Assembly (NCBI GenBank): GCA_048937405.1
Contig: JBHLNF010000001.1
Span: 688,785-752,784 of the forward strand
Origin: Promethearchaeota archaeon
Lineage (GTDB): Archaea > Asgardarchaeota > Lokiarchaeia > Sigyniarchaeales > SOKP01
Length of the DNA: 64,000 bases
Direction: 5' to 3'
Under the pieces are notes generated by a model. The model worked only from the letters and a program-made list of their open reading frames with translations, did no database searches and was not told the DNA's origin. Of this stretch, positions 18,560 to 49,409 are shown one piece after another. The first letter of the stretch is position 1, and every line of letters starts with the position of its first letter. The translations under genes and the position numbers were made by a program.

Positions 18560-19306
18560 TTAACGTTATTCCAAGCGGAAATAGCACGATTTATACTAAT
18601 TTACATTTTCTTAGGTATTTTAGCAGTTTATTTCTCAATAATTGCCTTTAAAGTCTTAAAGAGAAAAAAACAACGTTTAAATCTAATTATTAGTGGATTT
18701 TATATCAGTCTCTCCACAGGTTTTTATTTAAACATGGTCTATGCCACGATAACTGAACCAATTACTATTTTAATACTTAATTTTTTAACTAATTTCTTTA
18801 TTTTTTTTGGCACAATATTTCTTCTTATCGCAAATTTGATAATACTGGAATCGACTCTTATTTATTCAATAAAAAGACAAAATAAGTTTATTTTATTCTA
18901 TGGAATCTTACTTTTCACAGGTATGTTATTATTAGTAATATTAGGAATATTCTTTGATAATCCAAGTAGTCCGTTTTTAGGAGTCAAAATAATTGGTGTT
19001 GTTCCAAAATGGGGTCCTATTTTTTTTACCTATATAATTTCGATAGTGACTGTTTTTACCCTTATTCCAATAAATTATACGAATTTTAAAATCTTTTTTC
19101 GATTTGAAACTATTGCTTTGAAAAGAAAATGGTTTTATCACTTAGTAGGCTTTTTAGGGATAACAGTGATTTTTTATTTATCGTGCATTTTTAATATTTT
19201 GGATCCTGGACATCCTTTAAAATTGATAATTATATTATTGCATATGTCATTAATAATCTGGGGTTATTTGATGTATTATGGAATTGGAATTAAATTTAAA
19301 GATTGA
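18560..19306 (+). CDS. Multi-pass (about 7TM) membrane protein, paralog of 21288-22007; frame extends about 58 codons upstream of the ATG at 18734
   Basis: Frame is open from 18557; LTLFQAEIARFILIYIFLG...KVLKRKKQRLNLIISGFY aligns with the paralog's MSFYQLSIPRFFTVYIAQG...KILKRDTKRLNLIFTGFY; shared LKxKW and YLMYxG motifs. Confidence 0.7.
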   Translation, partial: LTLFQAEIARFILIYIFLGILAVYFSIIAFKVLKRKKQRLNLIISGFYISLSTGFYLNMVYATITEPITILILNFLTNFFIFFGTIFLLIANLIILESTLIYSIKRQNKFILFYGILLFTGMLLLVILGIFFDNPSSPFLGVKIIGVVPKWGPIFFTYIISIVTVFTLIPINYTNFKIFFRFETIALKRKWFYHLVGFLGITVIFYLSCIFNILDPGHPLKLIIILLHMSLIIWGYLMYYGIGIKFKD

Positions 19307-19466
19307 TATTGAATCCTTATATCTTGAAATAAATATTCATTTTTTTTTTTAGGAATTTTTATGACATAACTTATTTTGTTTTTTTTTTCACGGGAAAAAA
19401 AGGAAAATTTTATATATTCTTTCAAAAAGACTTAATTATCTGAATAAAATTTAATGGGATATTAAG

Positions 19467-20561
19467 ATGGAAACCATTACTAAAAACAAATTAAGAATTC
19501 AAGAAGATGATACTTATTTTCAAAAATTTGTATTTAAAAATGGACGAGAATATGGATTAAGGTTTGCAACTCCAAAAGATGCTGCTGTTATCTTATCCAT
19601 GTTCAAAGAAAGCTATAATTATATATATCCTTATCCACTTGTTTATGATATAGAACTTTTAAAAAAGAATATTGCAAAACCGAATAACTTTTGGGTGTTA
19701 AGCGATTTATTAGAAAGTAAAATAACTGTTGGATGTGCTTTAGTGGAAAGTGAAAGGTATATTGCTCATGCAGGACGTTTAATAGTGAAGAAGAATTTTC
19801 AAAAGCAAGGAATTACAAGAAATTTAGCAGCTGCAGGGCTTATAGCAGTTACAAGGATGCCCCAATTTAAATCTGTTTTAAGACTTAATACTGAAGTTCG
19901 TGCTCCATTAACACAAGTTCAAAATTCCGCTCAGAACGCAGGTGCAATCCCTTATAGTATAATTCCTAGTTATCTTAAATTAGCAGACAACAGATATTTT
20001 GATTTTGATGATAATAACCCATGTATTCCTCAATTTGAAGAATCTGCAGTGCTTTATTCAATGATTTTTAGAAATCTATGGAAAAAAAGAACTAAAAATG
20101 TTTTTCTATTAGATAATGAAGATATAATTTTCCTGTATAAATATGTTAGAAATCAAGCTAAAAGAATGCAAGATGATACATTAATCTTAAAAAATGAGAA
20201 AAACAGTGAATTATATGAACTTTTTGGGGTTTCAAAGGATTTTTACATGGCAAATGTGAATTTATTTGGTTATATAAAAGAAAAATCGCTCAATAACTTA
20301 TTAAAAACCTATAAGAATTGGAGACTTATCATATGGAAAATTCCCACAACGGAACTTGGAATATCTTCAATGTCTCTTGCTCTGAGAAAAGGTTTTAAAG
20401 TGGTGGGTTATGATATTGGATTTAATAATTATAATTGGACATTGTTTGATTCTATTATTCTAGCTTACTATCCTAACAGAAATTATGATTTATCAGATAT
20501 AAAGTGTATAGATTCAATAAAACCACTCTTTGACAGAATAAAGCAACAATTCTTAAATTAA
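19467..20561 (+). CDS. GNAT-fold protein
   Basis: RFATPKD start; GRLIVKKNFQKQGI acetyl-CoA-binding-like motif. Confidence 0.6.
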   Translation: METITKNKLRIQEDDTYFQKFVFKNGREYGLRFATPKDAAVILSMFKESYNYIYPYPLVYDIELLKKNIAKPNNFWVLSDLLESKITVGCALVESERYIAHAGRLIVKKNFQKQGITRNLAAAGLIAVTRMPQFKSVLRLNTEVRAPLTQVQNSAQNAGAIPYSIIPSYLKLADNRYFDFDDNNPCIPQFEESAVLYSMIFRNLWKKRTKNVFLLDNEDIIFLYKYVRNQAKRMQDDTLILKNEKNSELYELFGVSKDFYMANVNLFGYIKEKSLNNLLKTYKNWRLIIWKIPTTELGISSMSLALRKGFKVVGYDIGFNNYNWTLFDSIILAYYPNRNYDLSDIKCIDSIKPLFDRIKQQFLN

Positions 20562-20613: not shown

Positions 20614-21069
20614 TTAAGCAAGTAAAGATATAACCCTTTCTTCAAAAGTCAACGTACTTACATCAAATAACTTATTAAGTGTAGTTTTAAAACTTTCAAA
20701 TTGATTTGATTTAGTAAAATTGCATCCATTAAATTGAGAAATGAATTTTTTTAATACTTTCTCTAATAAAGGAAAAATTGTTTTTCTCAAAAATTTTTCA
20801 AGTCTTTCATCCCTATCTATAACTATAAAAGCCACGATCTCTTGATCAAATTGGAAACAATCTTTCACTATTCCTTTCTTAAAAATTATTGAGAATTTTT
20901 CACTCTCAAAATATTCTACGGGTTCCATTAAACATTCTGCAAAACTAAGAAGTCCACTCATAAGTCCACTTGAACAAACTAGATTTAAATTATCCTTACT
21001 AGCCCTATGATAACTAGAAAATATAATTGGAATTCCTTGAAAGAGTATACCTGCTTCTCTAATCAACAT
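20614..21069 (-). CDS. Stand-alone longin-like domain protein
   Basis: IREAGILFQGIPII beta hairpin, SGLMSGLLSFAE helix, C-terminal helices LLEKVLKKF and FESFKTTLNKLF. Confidence 0.6.
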   Translation of the reverse strand: MLIREAGILFQGIPIIFSSYHRASKDNLNLVCSSGLMSGLLSFAECLMEPVEYFESEKFSIIFKKGIVKDCFQFDQEIVAFIVIDRDERLEKFLRKTIFPLLEKVLKKFISQFNGCNFTKSNQFESFKTTLNKLFDVSTLTFEERVISLLA

Positions 21070-21287
21070 GGGAAATATTAAGATAAATTAACTAATAAAG
21101 TGATAAAAACATATTCTAAATAGACGACAATAATTTACGACAAAAAAATAGTATTTAAATGTATTCTTTTTTAGTGATATTCCGTCGCAATATCACAAAT
21201 AGTAGTGAATCTAAAAATTAAGGGAATCATTCAATAAAATCGAGTAAGTGTACTCCCCATTACCATTTTTTTATTTGATAAATTTAT

Positions 21288-22007
21288 TCACTCCAATTGA
21301 CGCCCTACACCGATATACATTAAATAAGCCCCAGAAATAATCAGAATCAAATCTGCTATTCCTATTACAGCTCTAAAAATAGGGACATCTAAAAAATTAG
21401 AAATAAATATACTATATCCGCATATATAAAAAGCTCCTAATCCGATTATAAAACATTTCCATTTTTTTTTCAATTGGAAATCTTCAAACTTCTTAAATAT
21501 TTTATATGAGCTGTAAAAGGATGGTACTACTACGTATACAGTTACAATAGACACAAAAAAAAGAAAAAAAGGCAACATCCAATGAGGTGTCCAATTTGGA
21601 GGGCCAATTTCTACACCCCAATTTTCTATTAAGAGGAAAATCCACATAAAAGAAAGAACAACAGCATATCCTACTAATATAGCAAGTTGCTTTTTAGTAT
21701 TAATAACTCTTTCTGGTTTTAGCAACATTAGTTCAAATACTAAAATAAAAATTGGTGAATAAAATGCAAAAAATGTCGTTATTCCATGCATGATAAGGAC
21801 AATATTTACATCTGTTATCGGAGCGTAGATAAAATTTACACCAAATCCGATAACATTACCTAGGTAGAATCCGGTGAATATTAAGTTCAATCGTTTTGTA
21901 TCGCGTTTAAGAATTTTATAGATTAAAAAAATGAAGTAGAAAAACATTACTCCTTGGGCAATATATACTGTAAAAAATCTAGGTATACTCAGTTGATAAA
22001 ACGACAT
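21288..22007 (-). CDS. Multi-pass (about 7TM) membrane protein
   Basis: Seven hydrophobic segments; paralog of 18560-19306. Confidence 0.75.
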   Translation of the reverse strand: MSFYQLSIPRFFTVYIAQGVMFFYFIFLIYKILKRDTKRLNLIFTGFYLGNVIGFGVNFIYAPITDVNIVLIMHGITTFFAFYSPIFILVFELMLLKPERVINTKKQLAILVGYAVVLSFMWIFLLIENWGVEIGPPNWTPHWMLPFFLFFVSIVTVYVVVPSFYSSYKIFKKFEDFQLKKKWKCFIIGLGAFYICGYSIFISNFLDVPIFRAVIGIADLILIISGAYLMYIGVGRQLE

Positions 22008-22313
22008 TTTAAGATACCATCATCATATTACCAATTTTGAAAAAAATTATACTTAATAATACTATTGTCTTTGATGTTCTATTTATTATTGTGGTTTTTA
22101 GTAGTGATCTCTAAACAATCATATAATTTAAAAAATGTATTATAGGATTATAAGTAATCAAAAATTTATCTTAAATTGATATTTGATTACTAACAGATAA
22201 TTTTTCTAATTCTTTCATCTAATTTATTGAATCTTTTTTTCATTTTTTAATTGATAAATACAGAAATACAATTAGAAATATGATATATGAGAATTAATCC
22301 TTCATATCAATAT

Positions 22314-23432
22314 TTATGCTGCAAAAATCTCTTCTATAATGTTTTTTATTGGATAAAATATGGTAAGATCTCCAGTCCAATTATTTAGGATACTACTATA
22401 AACTTCCTCAATCTTTATTATTAATTTCCTAAGATTGTGAATAAAAAATTTCAATTCTTCCTTACAAATTAATACTCCAGTTATATAATCACCAGAAAAA
22501 AGAATCAAAATTTTGTTATATTTTTTTATAATAGAAATTTCACTAGATTTACCTTCAATTAGTTCATTAAGCATTATATTCATTGAAGCCAATGTTCCTG
22601 AGACAAATTGATTTTCTAAAATCTTAGTCTTGCTTGAGAAGGAATAAGCAAATAAACAAATCCCTGTATTGTTTAATATATAAATATCTTCAATTTTATC
22701 TTGCCAGTCAAATTCAAAGAACGGAGGGATTTTTCTGAAAAAAATGAAAATTAGGGCAATGGCTATTAGTTGAAGAGTAATTCCAACAAATCTTATTATG
22801 AGTCCAAAAACTTGAAGAATTAAATCCATCGAAAAAACATATCCAATTAAAATAAGTAATATGATTATTGTCCCTTTTAAGAAACTTTTTGATAAAATTT
22901 CTTGTTTTGCTGATTTTCTACCAAGATCTTTTACATAAAGCAAAAATAAGAAAGTGAATAAAGGCCATGATACAACTGAAAGTGAATGAATAAATAATAA
23001 ATCAATGAAAAATAGAATGGAAAATAAAAATAATAAGATAATAAAAGTTAGTGTGAAAAAATACTTCTTAAAAAAGAATTTTTTATTTTTCTCTATAAAA
23101 TATGAAAACAATAAAATACCTATCATTAGTGAAAAAAAACCAAAATTATAAAAAAGTTGTCTGTAATTCCCCTCTGACCAAATTAAAAAAGGAGAAATTC
23201 TATTATTAGATAAATAGTAGCTAGAAATTATAGATAAAATTTTTAATACTGAAAATCCAAAAAATAATGATGCAAATCCTAAATCTTGTGAGTTTTTAAT
23301 ACTTATCGCTTGTTTTCTATATTTAATTAAAAAGATTATTCCAAGTTCAAGAGCAAAAAAGGCAAAAATCGATTCCATTATTAAAAGTGTAAATCTAAAC
23401 GAGGTTGTTATTGGAAATTCGATATACATCAA
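22314..23432 (-). CDS. 7TM membrane domain fused to C-terminal longin-like domain
   Basis: Seven hydrophobic segments, PPFFEFDW linker, then IEDIYILNNTGICLFAYSF...FVSGTLASMNIMLNEL...WTGDLTIF. Confidence 0.7.
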   Translation of the reverse strand: MMYIEFPITTSFRFTLLIMESIFAFFALELGIIFLIKYRKQAISIKNSQDLGFASLFFGFSVLKILSIISSYYLSNNRISPFLIWSEGNYRQLFYNFGFFSLMIGILLFSYFIEKNKKFFFKKYFFTLTFIILLFLFSILFFIDLLFIHSLSVVSWPLFTFLFLLYVKDLGRKSAKQEILSKSFLKGTIIILLILIGYVFSMDLILQVFGLIIRFVGITLQLIAIALIFIFFRKIPPFFEFDWQDKIEDIYILNNTGICLFAYSFSSKTKILENQFVSGTLASMNIMLNELIEGKSSEISIIKKYNKILILFSGDYITGVLICKEELKFFIHNLRKLIIKIEEVYSSILNNWTGDLTIFYPIKNIIEEIFAA

Positions 23433-23438
23433 CTTTTT

Positions 23439-24587
23439 TTACATCTGTAGTATTTGATTCATAATATTATCAAAACTGCTAAATAATTGTGAATATTCTT
23501 CTGAAAAGTTATTTAAATTTAATAGAATTTCTCTAAAAAATAATTCAAACCTACCTTTTATAGATTTTAAAAGATGAGGAGTGCTAATTAAATGAACTTT
23601 AACAATTAAGACAAATGTTAAGTAGAATGGATATTGACTATCCTCTAGGAAAATATGATAATCACCTTTTTCAATTTCATTTAAACCTTTACCTTTAGTA
23701 TTTGTAATTATTCCTATAATGGATTCAATCCCTAAAATTCCTTTAGAAAATAGATTTTCAAACTGTTTGAGATGATTTTGATTCTGAGCATTTTTATCCT
23801 TAAATTTTTCAATGAAATCATAACTATAAATGCAACTTTTGTTTTGTTGGTTAATTATAAATAATTTAATGAGGTTTTTCCTCCATTCAAATTCATAAAA
23901 AGGAGGAAAATTAATTACGGAAAATGATATAATAATGAATCCAATTATTAACACACAAATACCAGTGTAATAAATTATTTCATTTAAAATTGGGGGTAAA
24001 ACACCTAATCCAACAAAAATAGCGAAGGTTAAAGCAACTAAACTTATTAATGTACCATATAAAAATAATTCGAATTTTTTTTTTATATTTCCTACAACCT
24101 TTCTTATCATAATCATTTGAAATCTTACTAAGTACAAACCATTTAATACAATAAAAATAATACTGCTTATAAATAAGGGTGAGAGTAAATTTGGCACAAT
24201 AAATAAAACCACTACAGGAATAATAGTAAAGATTAGTAAAATTTTAGCGATTTTAATATTTATAACACTTGAAAACTCTTTAGCAATTATGATGGAAGAA
24301 AAACATATTGTTGAAAAAAAACCAAAAAACCAACCTATTCTCGTAATTATTACATGAATTATTTCATTTTCAATAAAATTCCTTGCTATATGTATCAATA
24401 ACGTACCTAATATTAAAAAAAATATAAATGAACCAAATGCTAATAAAATTCTATTTAATGGAAGATTTTTATCTCTTGTTTTTTGATATTGGAAAAATAA
24501 ATAAATTGTTAATTGAAATCCCATCATGATAGGTAACAAAAAAGCTATAAATTGCAGTTCTTTATTAATTTCAATTTGAGAAAGCAT
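23439..24587 (-). CDS. 7TM membrane domain fused to C-terminal longin-like domain (paralog)
   Basis: Seven hydrophobic segments, PPFYEFEW linker, LIKLFIINQQNKSCIYSYDF...LFSKGILGIESII...LLKSIKGRFELFF. Confidence 0.7.
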   Translation of the reverse strand: MLSQIEINKELQFIAFLLPIMMGFQLTIYLFFQYQKTRDKNLPLNRILLAFGSFIFFLILGTLLIHIARNFIENEIIHVIITRIGWFFGFFSTICFSSIIIAKEFSSVINIKIAKILLIFTIIPVVVLFIVPNLLSPLFISSIIFIVLNGLYLVRFQMIMIRKVVGNIKKKFELFLYGTLISLVALTFAIFVGLGVLPPILNEIIYYTGICVLIIGFIIISFSVINFPPFYEFEWRKNLIKLFIINQQNKSCIYSYDFIEKFKDKNAQNQNHLKQFENLFSKGILGIESIIGIITNTKGKGLNEIEKGDYHIFLEDSQYPFYLTFVLIVKVHLISTPHLLKSIKGRFELFFREILLNLNNFSEEYSQLFSSFDNIMNQILQM

Positions 24588-24690
24588 TTTTATATAATAA
24601 AAAAAAATATATAGATTCTGAATTTTCTGATGTTTTTTGCTTTAAATGATTAAATTCAATATTAAATATTTAACTGGAGTATTTAACCAT

Positions 24691-25224
24691 TTATATTATC
24701 ATTTTATCTGTTAAAATTTTTCTCAATAAAGTCTCAAATACTAATTCCACATTTTCCCCAGTTTTGGATGAGCAATCAATATAATCAAATAAATTGTATC
24801 GTTGAGCGATTTTATCTCCCTCTTTCCGCGAAAAATTAATCTGATCTTTAAGATCAGACTTACCTCCAACCAGTAAAACTGGGATATCTATTTTTTCAGT
24901 GGTCTGCTCCTTTCTAAAGGTATCTACCCAAGCTTCTACGTTCTCTAAGGTCTCATATCTGGAAAGATCAAACATAAAAATACCTCCAGAAGATCCTCTT
25001 GAGTATAAAGGCAATAGAAAAGTAAATATACGCTCCCCTCCAAAATCCCACACTTGTAGTACAATTTTTATATCATCAATTTGCATAAATTTAACAAATA
25101 TCTCTGCTCCCATAGTGATCTGAATGTTTTCTTCAAAATATCCTTTGAGAAATCTTCGAGCTAATGTAGTTTTACCTACACAGGTTTCTCCAAAAATACA
25201 AATTTTATAAGCTAACTCTCCCAT
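24691..25224 (-). CDS. Rab-like small GTPase
   Basis: G1 GETCVGKT, G2 ITMG, LQVWDFGGE, YSRGSSG, G4 GKSD, G5 CSSKTG. Confidence 0.92.
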   Translation of the reverse strand: MGELAYKICIFGETCVGKTTLARRFLKGYFEENIQITMGAEIFVKFMQIDDIKIVLQVWDFGGERIFTFLLPLYSRGSSGGIFMFDLSRYETLENVEAWVDTFRKEQTTEKIDIPVLLVGGKSDLKDQINFSRKEGDKIAQRYNLFDYIDCSSKTGENVELVFETLLRKILTDKMII

Positions 25225-25481: not shown

Positions 25482-26918
25482 TTATTTTTTCTTGCGTTTA
25501 GGTTCAATCTTTTTAATTACTATTGATTCTGCATGAATTTTACAATTCTTTAAGATTACCTTAAAGCCACCAGCTCCACCAACCCCCGGAATTGTCATTC
25601 CAACGGTTCCCATTGGAACCATCGCTCCTTCTTCTTCCCATTCTTCCTCTTCTTCCACTCCTCCTACAGCAGCTTTGTAATCTTCAGTTTCGATAATTGG
25701 ATGTCCCACTTTTTCTAACCATGCTGGTAATTCACTTAAATCAGAAACCTCTTCTTCCGTTGCAATTTTATCCCGTAGATCTTCTGGAAGGAATTCATAA
25801 ACGCGTTCCTTAACGCCTTTACCCATCCATACTATGGTGTAAATTCCTGACTTAAGACCTGCATTAACGCCATCATACTTTTGATATTTGGGTGATACAA
25901 TGTATTGTATGCTTATGCCATTAAACCCGGGCATTTGTTTTCCTCCACCGGTTTGATTGGCCATAGCACTAAAAGGAAGACCATTAATAGCGACACCATC
26001 AAAATTTCGATCAATAATTCCGTGACCAGCGCCAGTTTCTGGAATAAAGAAATCAATTGCTTCAAAACAGCCACAACTAGTATGAGGGAACTCCATTCCA
26101 GAGTAAAGATAAATTCTATCGATTTCCCCCAGTGAACGTTTTTTAATCATTTCGTTGACTCCAGAAAATTCACCGGCTAATTCATTAATTGTTTCACCAG
26201 GAGGTACTTCATAAAGAGGTCCTTTTGGGTCTACGCGTGCGGCGGCTCTGGCATCAAACCATGAAATAGAGCCACATAAACTCATTCGATTTGGTGTAAT
26301 ACAACAAGCATGAGTTGGGGCAAAACTCTGACACAAAACACAACCATAAAACATATCAACGTCCTCATCGTTGATACTTCTTGCTCTTTCGTCTCGTTTC
26401 TCGTAAATCTCCATTGCCATTTTGTAAGGTTCTTCTATTTTTTTCGGATCAGTATAGATTGTGACTTGAGCTTTTTTTATAATTGGTAGTTCAGCTTTAT
26501 ACAATCTAATTAGGACTGTTCCAAGCATCTGAAAGTTATCAAATCCTTTTTCTACAGCATTTTTAGAAATTCGCATCCAATTAGTATATCTTTGGTTTAA
26601 ATGCATTATTCCATTTACAAAGTTGCAAAATTCATGAACTCTTCTTTCAAATACAGCTTCTAAATCTTCTTCTAGTTCAGGTCCGGCAACTTCTACCAAA
26701 ATACCAATAGGATGCCTTGAACCTAATTCCATATCTTTTATATCTGGACCGATAAGAGTTACCTTTCCATCCTCAATTTCCTTATCCTTCTTAACACGTA
26801 CGAGTTCGAAGTGCTTCTCAATTTTAGGTCCGCCAAGTTCAACATACATTTGATTACCCCTAATACGTTCACCTTCGTATACGGGTCCAACATCTACAGG
26901 GATATCACTAAAACTCAT
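25482..26918 (-). CDS. cdhC: Acetyl-CoA decarbonylase/synthase beta subunit
   Basis: PVDVGPVYEGERIR, FYGCVLCQSFAP, PHTSCGCFE, acidic linker. Confidence 0.95.
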   Translation of the reverse strand: MSFSDIPVDVGPVYEGERIRGNQMYVELGGPKIEKHFELVRVKKDKEIEDGKVTLIGPDIKDMELGSRHPIGILVEVAGPELEEDLEAVFERRVHEFCNFVNGIMHLNQRYTNWMRISKNAVEKGFDNFQMLGTVLIRLYKAELPIIKKAQVTIYTDPKKIEEPYKMAMEIYEKRDERARSINDEDVDMFYGCVLCQSFAPTHACCITPNRMSLCGSISWFDARAAARVDPKGPLYEVPPGETINELAGEFSGVNEMIKKRSLGEIDRIYLYSGMEFPHTSCGCFEAIDFFIPETGAGHGIIDRNFDGVAINGLPFSAMANQTGGGKQMPGFNGISIQYIVSPKYQKYDGVNAGLKSGIYTIVWMGKGVKERVYEFLPEDLRDKIATEEEVSDLSELPAWLEKVGHPIIETEDYKAAVGGVEEEEEWEEEGAMVPMGTVGMTIPGVGGAGGFKVILKNCKIHAESIVIKKIEPKRKKK

Positions 26919-26953
26919 ATATTAAATCTCCTCACATTTTTTCCATATTATAT

Positions 26954-27493
26954 TTATAAATTTTTAATCAAATTTTCTAGAAATATCTTCCATTCTTCTT
27001 CGCTTAGATTTGGTAAACTAAATCTAGCGTTTGGATGAGAATATTTATCTAGATCAATTGTTCTTAACCAATTTGTAAAATTTTTAAGCCTAGACAATGT
27101 TTGAGAAACATAAAATACTATATGTCCCCCAAATATAGCCATTGAATACTGTCCTTCTCCATCTAATCCAGCCCAATCTTTATCAGATAAACGGTTTGTA
27201 ATATTTATCAAGGACATATCATACAATTTATTATCGGTGATTTTATCTTTTAAATAACTATATGCATGTCCTGTTGACACTACGTGACAGTCAATTTTAT
27301 TTGCTATTTCTATGAAATAATCCGCAACCTTTTTGCCATCAAGCTCCCAATTTAATGATTCAGCACCAATCACAAAAACAGTCTTCTTAGGGGTTTTAAG
27401 TAAATTAGCCATTACTGTTGGATCTGAAACAGAAGTACCCATCTCAGGACCAGGAATGTTAGCTTTTTGATACGGACGTGCCATTTCACTCAA
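26954..27493 (-). CDS. cdhB: Acetyl-CoA decarbonylase/synthase epsilon subunit
   Basis: PYQKANIPGP, DKDWAGLDGEGQY, HPNARFS; adjacent to cdhC. Confidence 0.9.
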   Translation of the reverse strand: MSEMARPYQKANIPGPEMGTSVSDPTVMANLLKTPKKTVFVIGAESLNWELDGKKVADYFIEIANKIDCHVVSTGHAYSYLKDKITDNKLYDMSLINITNRLSDKDWAGLDGEGQYSMAIFGGHIVFYVSQTLSRLKNFTNWLRTIDLDKYSHPNARFSLPNLSEEEWKIFLENLIKNL

Positions 27494-48302: not shown

Positions 48303-49409
48303 ATGCTAGACGACTTATTTATAATTACCGACACAGGACAATTAATCTTTAGTTGGCACTGGGAGGAAAGTGATAGTGTTAAAGATGATGATCTTATTAG
48401 CGGTTTTCTTACCGCTCTAGATAGTTTTGCTAGTATAGAAAGAGGAGAAGATATAAAATCCTTACAATTAAAAGAAACTCATATAATTTTTGAGAAAAGT
48501 TCTAATCAAGTTCAGAAACTTACCTTTGTTGTCACTACTAAGAATGAAGAATTGATAGAATTATTACACTCAATTGTTCATGATATTATGGATACTTTTA
48601 CTACGACTTTTAAAGAACACCTGAATAGAGAATTTGATGGTGAAATTTCTAAATATAAAATATTTCATGATATCTTAAAAAATATTATTCATTCAAGGGG
48701 ACTAGATACTTTAAACGATTCTGTTAGGCAAATTAATGATGGAGGTGCACTTAAATCGATTGTATTCCTTGAACCAAAAGGAGGAAATATTTTTTTTATT
48801 CATGCAAGGCAATTTGTAAATAAAGATAAATTGAGTTTTCTTATCCCTTTAATTGTCAATTCTGCCCAATTATTATACAAAAATAATCTTGGAGAGAATG
48901 TACATTGGATATTATTAACGACTATTAGAAATGAAAATATCCTTGTAGAAATCAGAAGCAAAATTATTATAGTAAAACAATACCAATTGCCAGAAAACAT
49001 TGAAAAAGATTTCTTAGAATTAGAATTTTTTAAAAGTAAAGAAAAGTATGTTAAGAAACCAAAGAAAGTTATCGAAAAATTTGAAAATTTAATATGGGAT
49101 CCCAGAATTAAACAAATCTTTCTTGTTGATTTAGTTGGTAAAATTCTTTACTCTAAAATAATTGATGATAAATATGATTGTACGGAATATATTCCAGAAA
49201 CAATTAGTGTGCTTACTTCCTCAAAAAAAATAAGTGAAGAGACATATAATCGGATTTTATTCAATACATCTCTCGGTGGAGAGAATATAACTACTATCTG
49301 TATGAATTTTAATAATATAGCTTTAACTATGATAGGTAACATTAGAGATATAAATACATTTCAAACAATACAAGATATCTGCTATAAAATATTTCTTCAA
49401 GTTAAGTAG
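48303..49409 (+). CDS. Multi-longin/roadblock-like protein
   Basis: N-terminal LFIITDTGQLIF...DDLISGFLTALDSFA...FDGEI; two further units starting LKSIVFLEPKGGNIF and IKQIFLVDLVGKILYS. Confidence 0.65.
   Translation: MLDDLFIITDTGQLIFSWHWEESDSVKDDDLISGFLTALDSFASIERGEDIKSLQLKETHIIFEKSSNQVQKLTFVVTTKNEELIELLHSIVHDIMDTFTTTFKEHLNREFDGEISKYKIFHDILKNIIHSRGLDTLNDSVRQINDGGALKSIVFLEPKGGNIFFIHARQFVNKDKLSFLIPLIVNSAQLLYKNNLGENVHWILLTTIRNENILVEIRSKIIIVKQYQLPENIEKDFLELEFFKSKEKYVKKPKKVIEKFENLIWDPRIKQIFLVDLVGKILYSKIIDDKYDCTEYIPETISVLTSSKKISEETYNRILFNTSLGGENITTICMNFNNIALTMIGNIRDINTFQTIQDICYKIFLQVK

Follow-up and report, generated by a model that had tools for sequence, protein, structure and literature searches.

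How a small GTPase without a lipid anchor could reach, and be regulated at, the membrane of a cell without organelles is the question raised by a locus in a 64,000-nucleotide stretch of contig JBHLNF010000001.1 from a Promethearchaeota archaeon (positions 688,785 to 752,784; hereafter the window), in which the gene for a Rab-like GTPase precedes two tandem genes, here termed F1 and F2, whose products fuse a seven-transmembrane-helix (7TM) domain to a longin-like tail. Longin is the fold by which eukaryotes control Rab GTPases, and Asgard genomes encode dozens of small GTPases together with longin and roadblock proteins, the pairings of which are largely unknown. According to Tran et al. (2024, PMC10933270), the small GTPase genes of MK-D1 do not generally share operons with genes for roadblock, longin or TRAPPC3 proteins, which makes their partners hard to predict, and Zhu et al. 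(2025, PMC11914678) describe the native regulators of Asgard Arf GTPases as still to be identified. On the present analysis the working unit of the locus is a three-gene cassette (GTPase, F1, F2), a matched and directly testable candidate trio of one Rab-like GTPase and two membrane-embedded longin proteins. An archaeal small GTPase is thereby given a candidate partner in the membrane that can be put to the test. Genomic and modelling support tips the balance slightly towards this cassette providing a longin platform in the membrane for the Rab-like protein, and suggests a route by which a GTPase without a lipid anchor might be brought there.

F1 and F2, which BLASTP aligns over 232 residues (26% identity, E 5e-8), are paralogues. 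A first-pass annotation of this DNA had described each as seven hydrophobic helices joined by a shared PPF(F/Y)EF(D/E)W linker to a longin-like domain, and each element of this description holds. The linker is seen in both proteins (Table 1), its Glu and Trp being invariant in 34 F2 homologues and nearly invariant in 31 F1 homologues. From a 41-sequence alignment, AlphaFold2 models F2 residues 1-234 as seven long helices (predicted local distance difference test, pLDDT, 89; predicted template modelling score, pTM, 0.85), while F1 displays seven hydropathy peaks and full-length homology to the F2 family (jackhmmer). Among 35 F2 homologues, Lys and Arg residues are concentrated in loops 1-2, 3-4 and 5-6 and after the seventh helix (means of 3.2, 4.2, 2.6 and 2.2, respectively), and are sparse in loops 2-3, 4-5 and 6-7 (1.3, 0.1 and 0.1) as well as at the N-terminus (0.7), a pattern that by the positive-inside rule places the N-terminus outside and the tail in the cytoplasm. 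An outer loop is strongly conserved, with P81, F82, W85 and G88 invariant, and the transmembrane helices hold conserved polar residues.

At the level of sequence families these proteins stand apart: none of F1, F2 or the two genes further downstream (encoding 239 and 151 residues) has a Pfam or NCBIfam match, and the F2 7TM model finds no Foldseek match at E 0.001 or better. The nearest shapes in the ESM Atlas are stand-alone Promethearchaeota 7TM clusters of about 242 residues (TM-score 0.73-0.76), followed by bacterial N-terminal seven-helix modules (TM-score 0.62-0.67 over about 200 residues) whose outputs are HisKA/HATPase, GGDEF, guanylate cyclase, LuxR or SpoIIE domains. As judged from the model, the shape likeness is thus to prokaryotic 7TM sensors, in which such a module carries a cytoplasmic output. 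Searched against 1.84 billion representatives, a profile of the 7TM domain of F2 retrieved 286 clusters at E <=0.001, and in the best 150 of these the longin tail is present in all 108 proteins of at least 330 residues; other outputs were looked for and none occurs among these full-length proteins. Within the reach of HMMER, the 7TM module is seen solely with the longin output.

The longin assignment itself rests on structure. The F2 tail (residues 234-372) is modelled by AlphaFold2 as beta-beta-alpha-beta-beta-beta-alpha-alpha (pLDDT 78, pTM 0.73; DSSP strands 14-21, 26-31, 66-71, 74-80 and 84-90, helices 41-58, 95-117 and 129-138), which is the longin topology. Before the first strand there is no more than a linker helix of 7 residues; the full N-terminal helix of the Roadblock/LC7/MglB topology (alpha-beta-beta-alpha-beta-beta-beta, with or without a final alpha), considered as an alternative fold, is missing. 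Superposition of the model favours solved longin domains by a wide margin over other folds, and the best matches are longins: TRAPP Bet5/Trs23 (score 13.2), VAMP7 (12.6), Fuzzy (12.2), the Lokiarchaeal longin 8yqg (11.8) and Mon1-Ccz1 (10.5). Roadblock matches are shorter and lower-scoring, that to MglB reaching 9.9 over 103 residues only. The F1 tail follows by homology, as it aligns with the F2 tail at 99.6% and E 1e-23 in hhalign. One JGI homologue carries a COG-type label 'Roadblock/LC7/MglB', which reflects the shared superfamily.

To place the cassette in a wider context, an F2 profile was run on 399 genomes of the phylum, and the open reading frames (ORFs) in the surroundings (about 17 kb) of 40 matches were typed by profiles seeded from the window genes. 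F2 matches at E <=1e-20 occur in 125 of the 399 genomes, across many families. Nearly all sampled loci of the class have F1 and F2 in the same orientation, F1 being the gene directly upstream, at a spacing that ranges from a short overlap to about 125 nucleotides and is below 60 in nearly all; the F1-F2 tandem is thus the conserved core, and single 7TM-longin copies are found in the more distant families f8, f19, f20 and f30 and in most of f31. A small GTPase is encoded within 500 nucleotides of 14 of the 37 sampled F1-F2 pairs, or next to 9 of 28 F2 clusters at 55% identity and 9 of 20 at 45%. Random 2.3-kb segments of the window's source genome, used as background, gave such adjacency in 1.1% of trials when small GTPases were counted and in 2.3% for all GTPase-like ORFs, so that the association exceeds background 15-30 times, also after relatives are collapsed, and is neither unique to this genome nor an effect of GTPase gene density. 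The GTPase gene is often co-directional and directly upstream of F1 (in the window and in sampled loci L044, L045, L046, L053, L057, L061-L063 and L084), and the order GTPase-F1-F2 is met in families f1, f4 and f7. The adjacency on which the first-pass annotation built its proposal therefore recurs in several families, and is at the same time far from universal. A local expansion of the cassette was encountered in another family, at locus L058 (G128:C5:1278464-1298400), where six 7TM-longin genes form an array (F1-F2, F1-F2, F2-F2) followed by two small GTPase genes on the opposite strand.

The GTPase of the window matches Pfam Ras at 9.5e-37, and its best Protein Data Bank (PDB) match is the Thorarchaeota Rab 7ezb (1e-30), followed by Ypt6/Rab6, Rab18, Rab2, Rab5 and Rab11; as its closest solved relatives are Rabs, the earlier description of it as Rab-like is fair. 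It ends in TDKMII and has no Cys prenylation motif, in line with the earlier view of a non-prenylated Rab, and a C-terminal Cys motif is likewise absent from all 16 aligned neighbouring GTPases. The canonical catalytic Gln of switch II (DxxGQ) is replaced by Glu (WDFGGE) and the Asn of NKxD by Gly (GGKSD), both substitutions being shared by the closest orthologues, in L045 and L046. The orthologue in L001 and L044 (L044 10404-10943, minus strand, equivalent to L001 4300-4722) was called as a 140-residue ORF because no ATG, GTG or TTG stands at the expected start (...PIIGELAYK...). We rejected truncation of this protein, as the coding region reads through upstream with an intact P-loop and lacks nothing but a canonical start codon; an unusual initiation codon, or an error in the sequence, could account for the anomaly.

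Complex modelling, a check that had been proposed for the longin pair and the GTPase, was performed with three chains (F1 tail, F2 tail and GTPase) that were each given a separate alignment, the GTPase being scored as the partner. The predicted complex reached an interface score (ipSAE) of 0.86 against 0.49 for the best control, with at least 92% of contacts agreeing across three runs and a partner pLDDT of at least 83; 58 of 80 solved complexes attain the mark applied, as do 2 of 110 mismatched pairs, counts that are only a rough calibration here given the custom alignments and the three chains. In the model the switch regions of the GTPase are placed on both longins. Switch I (27-44), the interswitch (55-59) and switch II (66-78), together with residues 1-7, contact helix alpha1 of the F1 tail (50-68) and, in the F2 tail, alpha1 (39-57), the beta1-beta2 hairpin (22-26) and residues 120-124. 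The same longin/roadblock face is used by TRAPP, Mon1-Ccz1 and MglB in established structures.

Several observations weigh against F1-F2 serving as a platform for this GTPase. No GTPase is encoded within 8 kb of about 60% of the sampled F1-F2 pairs or of any distant single-copy homologue in the sample, and in a tree with the small GTPases of this genome the neighbouring GTPases fall into at least four separate clades, which excludes a single orthologous, ancestral partner and points to repeated association or rapid turnover. In the window, the spacer between the GTPase gene and F1 holds a T9 run and a TATA-like AT-rich stretch directly 5' of the F1 ATG, which suggests separate transcripts for the GTPase and for F1-F2, and the Glu and Gly substitutions mean that the nucleotide cycle may be atypical. 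As for the model, solved complexes of this kind exist, so that its success may derive from them and indicates likeness, not binding; when F1 is swapped for an unrelated protein the score is still 0.49, which implies that F2 carries most of the predicted interface; and conservation at the predicted interface is no higher than elsewhere in each domain. Finally, neither tail reaches the threshold for any Pfam longin family, curated membership at the sequence level (Sybindin, Sedlin_N, Longin, Fuz_longin) thus being absent, and sequence-profile searches of the PDB return for the F2 tail, at best, Trs23 (E 0.097, over 29 residues of the first hairpin).

In a rather improbable alternative, F1 and F2 act independently of small GTPases, for instance as a sensor or transporter regulator with longin tails that bind other partners, and the GTPase neighbour is an effect of the very high density of GTPase genes in Asgard genomes. 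The genome does hold 58-104 GTPase-like ORFs, most F1-F2 pairs lack a nearby GTPase, the neighbouring GTPases are polyphyletic, and longins also have non-GTPase roles, as in the SNAREs and coat subunits that figure among the structural matches; set against this are the excess of adjacency over background with relatives collapsed, the same co-directional order in three families, and a docking model that passes its controls. A second alternative, somewhat less probable still, retains the GTPase contact and has F1-F2 as a passive, Ragulator-like anchor or scaffold for the non-lipidated GTPase or for other longin/roadblock partners, with the nucleotide state unchanged and the 7TM part serving as anchor only. 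It accommodates GTPases devoid of a lipid-anchor Cys, as well as the fusion of the same longin type to 11-helix MFS-like and 10-helix domains elsewhere in the genome, which suggests general tethering. An anchor, however, has little need of seven conserved helices, invariant outer-loop residues and polar transmembrane residues, and the modelled contacts involve both switch regions.

The mechanism that we favour takes F1 and F2 as seven-helix proteins with the N-terminus outside and the C-terminus inside, whose cytoplasmic longin tails would pair, as longin and roadblock domains usually do, into a platform of two alpha1 helices and beta1-beta2 hairpins at the inner membrane face. The GTPase, having no lipid-anchor Cys, would dock there through switch I, interswitch and switch II, with the consequence that it would be recruited to the membrane and its nucleotide state controlled at that site. 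Both longin tails touch the GTPase in the complex model and the F1-F2 tandem pairing is conserved; that the GTPase is bound or recruited by F1-F2 stands at about even chances or marginally above. The favoured activity of the platform would be nucleotide exchange, as in TRAPP, Mon1-Ccz1 and Fuzzy-Inturned, and a role of the longin pair as guanine nucleotide exchange factor (GEF) is a tentative and somewhat doubtful assignment. The opposite activity, with the pair acting as a GTPase-activating protein (GAP) or GAP co-factor in the style of MglB on MglA to switch a membrane-proximal GTPase off, is decidedly improbable. The docked face is one that MglB also uses, and a GP motif and an arginine finger, by which longin GAPs are defined in PMC12290439, are neither of them seen in the F1 or F2 hairpin.

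Because the 7TM domains share the shape of sensor modules with diverse cytoplasmic outputs, the platform may further be gated through them by a cue from the membrane or from outside the cell; by this analogy signal gating is conceivable, if rather unlikely, and if the 7TM part does sense something it would represent a new type of receptor output. We infer the F1-F2 heterodimer, the direction of regulation and any sensing. Combined in full, F1-F2 would be a heterodimeric 7TM receptor-GEF in which an extracellular or membrane cue reshapes the longin pair to load GTP, at the membrane, onto a dedicated non-lipidated Rab-like GTPase, a composite proposal that is unlikely as a whole. If true, it would constitute an archaeal pathway from 7TM protein to small GTPase, independent of and functionally parallel to GPCR (G protein-coupled receptor)-G protein coupling, and a possible forerunner of eukaryotic membrane-localised longin GEF and Ragulator-type systems. 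From the receptor-GEF-GTPase interpretation of the first-pass annotation, the architecture, longin fold, cytoplasmic tail and GTPase adjacency carry over, with the controlled docking model in support; its extension to a module of five genes does not.

Comparison with known systems delimits what is particular to the cassette. Longin heterodimers act as Rab GEFs in the TRAPP core (Bet5/Trs23), Mon1-Ccz1, Fuzzy-Inturned (CPLANE) and BLOC-3. In contrast to these, the longin of F1 and F2 is a single domain fused to its own seven-helix domain, and the cassette has neither tri-longin or TRAPP accessory subunits nor sequence-level family membership. With prokaryotic 7TM sensors F1 and F2 share a seven-helix module at the N-terminus and, behind it, a signalling domain in the cytoplasm, whereas their output is a longin and not an enzyme, they are encoded as a conserved tandem pair, and they have no sequence similarity to any Pfam 7TM family. 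The Streptomyces conservon consists of a membrane sensor kinase, a roadblock protein and a Ras-like GTPase, and like MglA-MglB it encodes a prokaryotic Ras-superfamily GTPase beside a regulator of the roadblock/longin superfamily, to which the conservon adds the membrane sensor; the present cassette differs in using longin instead of roadblock, in joining sensor and platform in one polypeptide, and in having no kinase.

The likeness to GPCRs consists of seven transmembrane helices with the N-terminus out and the C-terminus in, as indicated by the AlphaFold2 model and the positive-inside pattern. No homology emerges, the Foldseek comparisons having E >=0.014 and scores within helical-bundle noise, and the proposed exchange surface would be the longin pair instead of the helical-bundle cavity, with a small GTPase as partner. 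Also similar is the Ragulator/SLC38A9-Rag assembly, where a roadblock/longin platform holds non-lipidated GTPases at the membrane beside a polytopic sensor; in F1 and F2, however, anchoring is covalent through the fusion, the GTPase is Rab-like and not Rag-like, and there is no LAMTOR1-like wrapper. As regards earlier descriptions, the Liu et al. preprint (10.1101/2020.10.19.343400) reports a LAMTOR1-like/Rab-like/DENN operon as well as longins fused to two-component domains, and its main text contains no 7TM-longin fusion. In a 2026 preprint '7TM proteins' are simply listed among Asgard eukaryotic signature protein (ESP) families, and term searches of the literature yielded no description of such a fusion in the papers covered.

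Table 1. Coordinates in the window of the cassette, its domains and its neighbours
Feature	Position	Strand	Basis
Rab-like small GTPase, 177 aa (amino acids)	24691-25224	-	ORF listing, Pfam Ras
GTPase/F1 spacer, 103 nucleotides	24588-24690	-	direct sequence reading
F1, 7TM-longin, 382 aa	23439-24587	-	ORF listing
F1 seven-helix membrane domain, residues 1-225	23913-24587	-	hydropathy, jackhmmer homology to F2 family
F1 linker NFPPFYEFEW and longin domain, residues 226-382	23442-23912	-	hhalign to F2 tail
F2, 7TM-longin, 372 aa	22314-23432	-	ORF listing
F2 seven-helix membrane domain, residues 1-233	22734-23432	-	AlphaFold2 model; N-terminus outside
F2 linker KIPPFFEFDW and longin domain in the cytoplasm, residues 234-372	22317-22733	-	
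Polytopic membrane protein, 239 aa	21288-22007	-	ORF listing; neighbour outside the conserved unit
Soluble protein, probably longin-like, 151 aa	20614-21069	-	ORF listing; neighbour outside the conserved unit
CdhC (CO dehydrogenase/acetyl-CoA synthase beta subunit, Pfam 1e-70) and 179-aa gene	25482-27493	-	

The five consecutive minus-strand genes on which the first-pass annotation was based are all present in the ORF listing, separated from the GTPase gene to the 151-residue gene by 103, 6, 306 and 218 nucleotides, the 6-nucleotide gap between F1 and F2 being as originally given. Treating them as one module or operon is not borne out and was rejected, as the 239-residue copy is patchy in its distribution and the 151-residue gene belongs to a separate conserved neighbourhood. 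The 239-residue protein is a paralogue of the product of the gene at 18734-19306 (33% identity, E 3e-21), and its family in relatives adjoins a gene for a 365-residue GNAT-like protein, as does the copy next to 19467-20561 here; judged by sequence, it is a lineage-specific extra copy of a family normally paired with a GNAT-like gene. Between F2 and the 151-residue gene it is intact only in the window and L045, is absent from L001/L044, and in L084 (3506-4253, plus strand) is broken over three frames, which is either a pseudogene or an assembly error. A relationship of its family to the F2 7TM domain was also considered and dismissed, with no profile similarity between the two (hhalign probability 0.9%).

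Conservation of the 151-residue protein far exceeds that of F1 or F2, with 65-85% identity and constant length over more than 100 clusters from metagenomes and metagenome-assembled genomes, some labelled Thor-, Hod- or Hermodarchaeota. In L085 and L086 the order is CdhC, 151-residue gene, GNAT-like gene, transmembrane-protein gene, NMNAT-like gene and metallophosphatase, with GTPase-F1-F2 not there, so that the trio appears as an insertion between cdhC and the 151-residue gene in this lineage. The earlier view of this protein as a free longin stands in part: it is probably longin-like, given an hhalign match to the F2 tail (70%, E 4e-5) and, as weak leads, Fuz_longin_1 in 34% of the members of a neighbouring Atlas cluster and a PDB sequence-profile match to 8yqg (E 0.22), and it lies outside the GTPase-F1-F2 unit. 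In the window, the genes for a transmembrane protein and the 365-residue GNAT-like protein (18734-20561, plus strand) converge on it within this conserved neighbourhood, whose transmembrane proteins measure about 190-255 residues; the pair is duplicated in L001/L044. On the other side the cassette is flanked by CdhC and the 179-residue gene, the L001 orthologue of which has Pfam CO_dh, and which together are ordinary Wood-Ljungdahl genes. The source genome, of 4.47 Mb in 29 contigs, belongs to the Asgard phylum and is of Lokiarchaeia type; the window has a G+C content of about 29%, and homologues carry the labels Promethearchaeota or Lokiarchaeota.

Elsewhere in the window (48303-49409, plus strand), a 368-residue soluble protein has an N-terminal Fuz_longin_1 match just below the cut-off (E 2e-5; 25.2 bits against 26.1), and the F2 longin profile adds weak matches at residues 258-295 and 348-365. 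The protein has no PDB sequence match, the 361-residue product of the downstream gene is unrelated to it by BLASTP, and from its profile matches it may be a multi-longin protein of the Mon1/Fuzzy/HPS1 kind. Across this genome about 21 ORFs have the longin type of F1 and F2, among them one encoding a 1563-residue protein. A second 7TM-longin pair lies on contig 17; tandem proteins of 556 and 553 residues combine about 11 transmembrane helices with the same C-terminal longin (G000:C13:284002-287518; L007, L009), and one 11-helix longin protein has a weak MFS_1 match (E 7e-5, below the cut-off), its membrane domain being transporter-like. With a 739-residue protein that joins 10 transmembrane helices to a longin (G000:C28:298820-301039), the 7-, 11- and 10-helix examples indicate that longin tails on polytopic membrane proteins are a recurrent design here.

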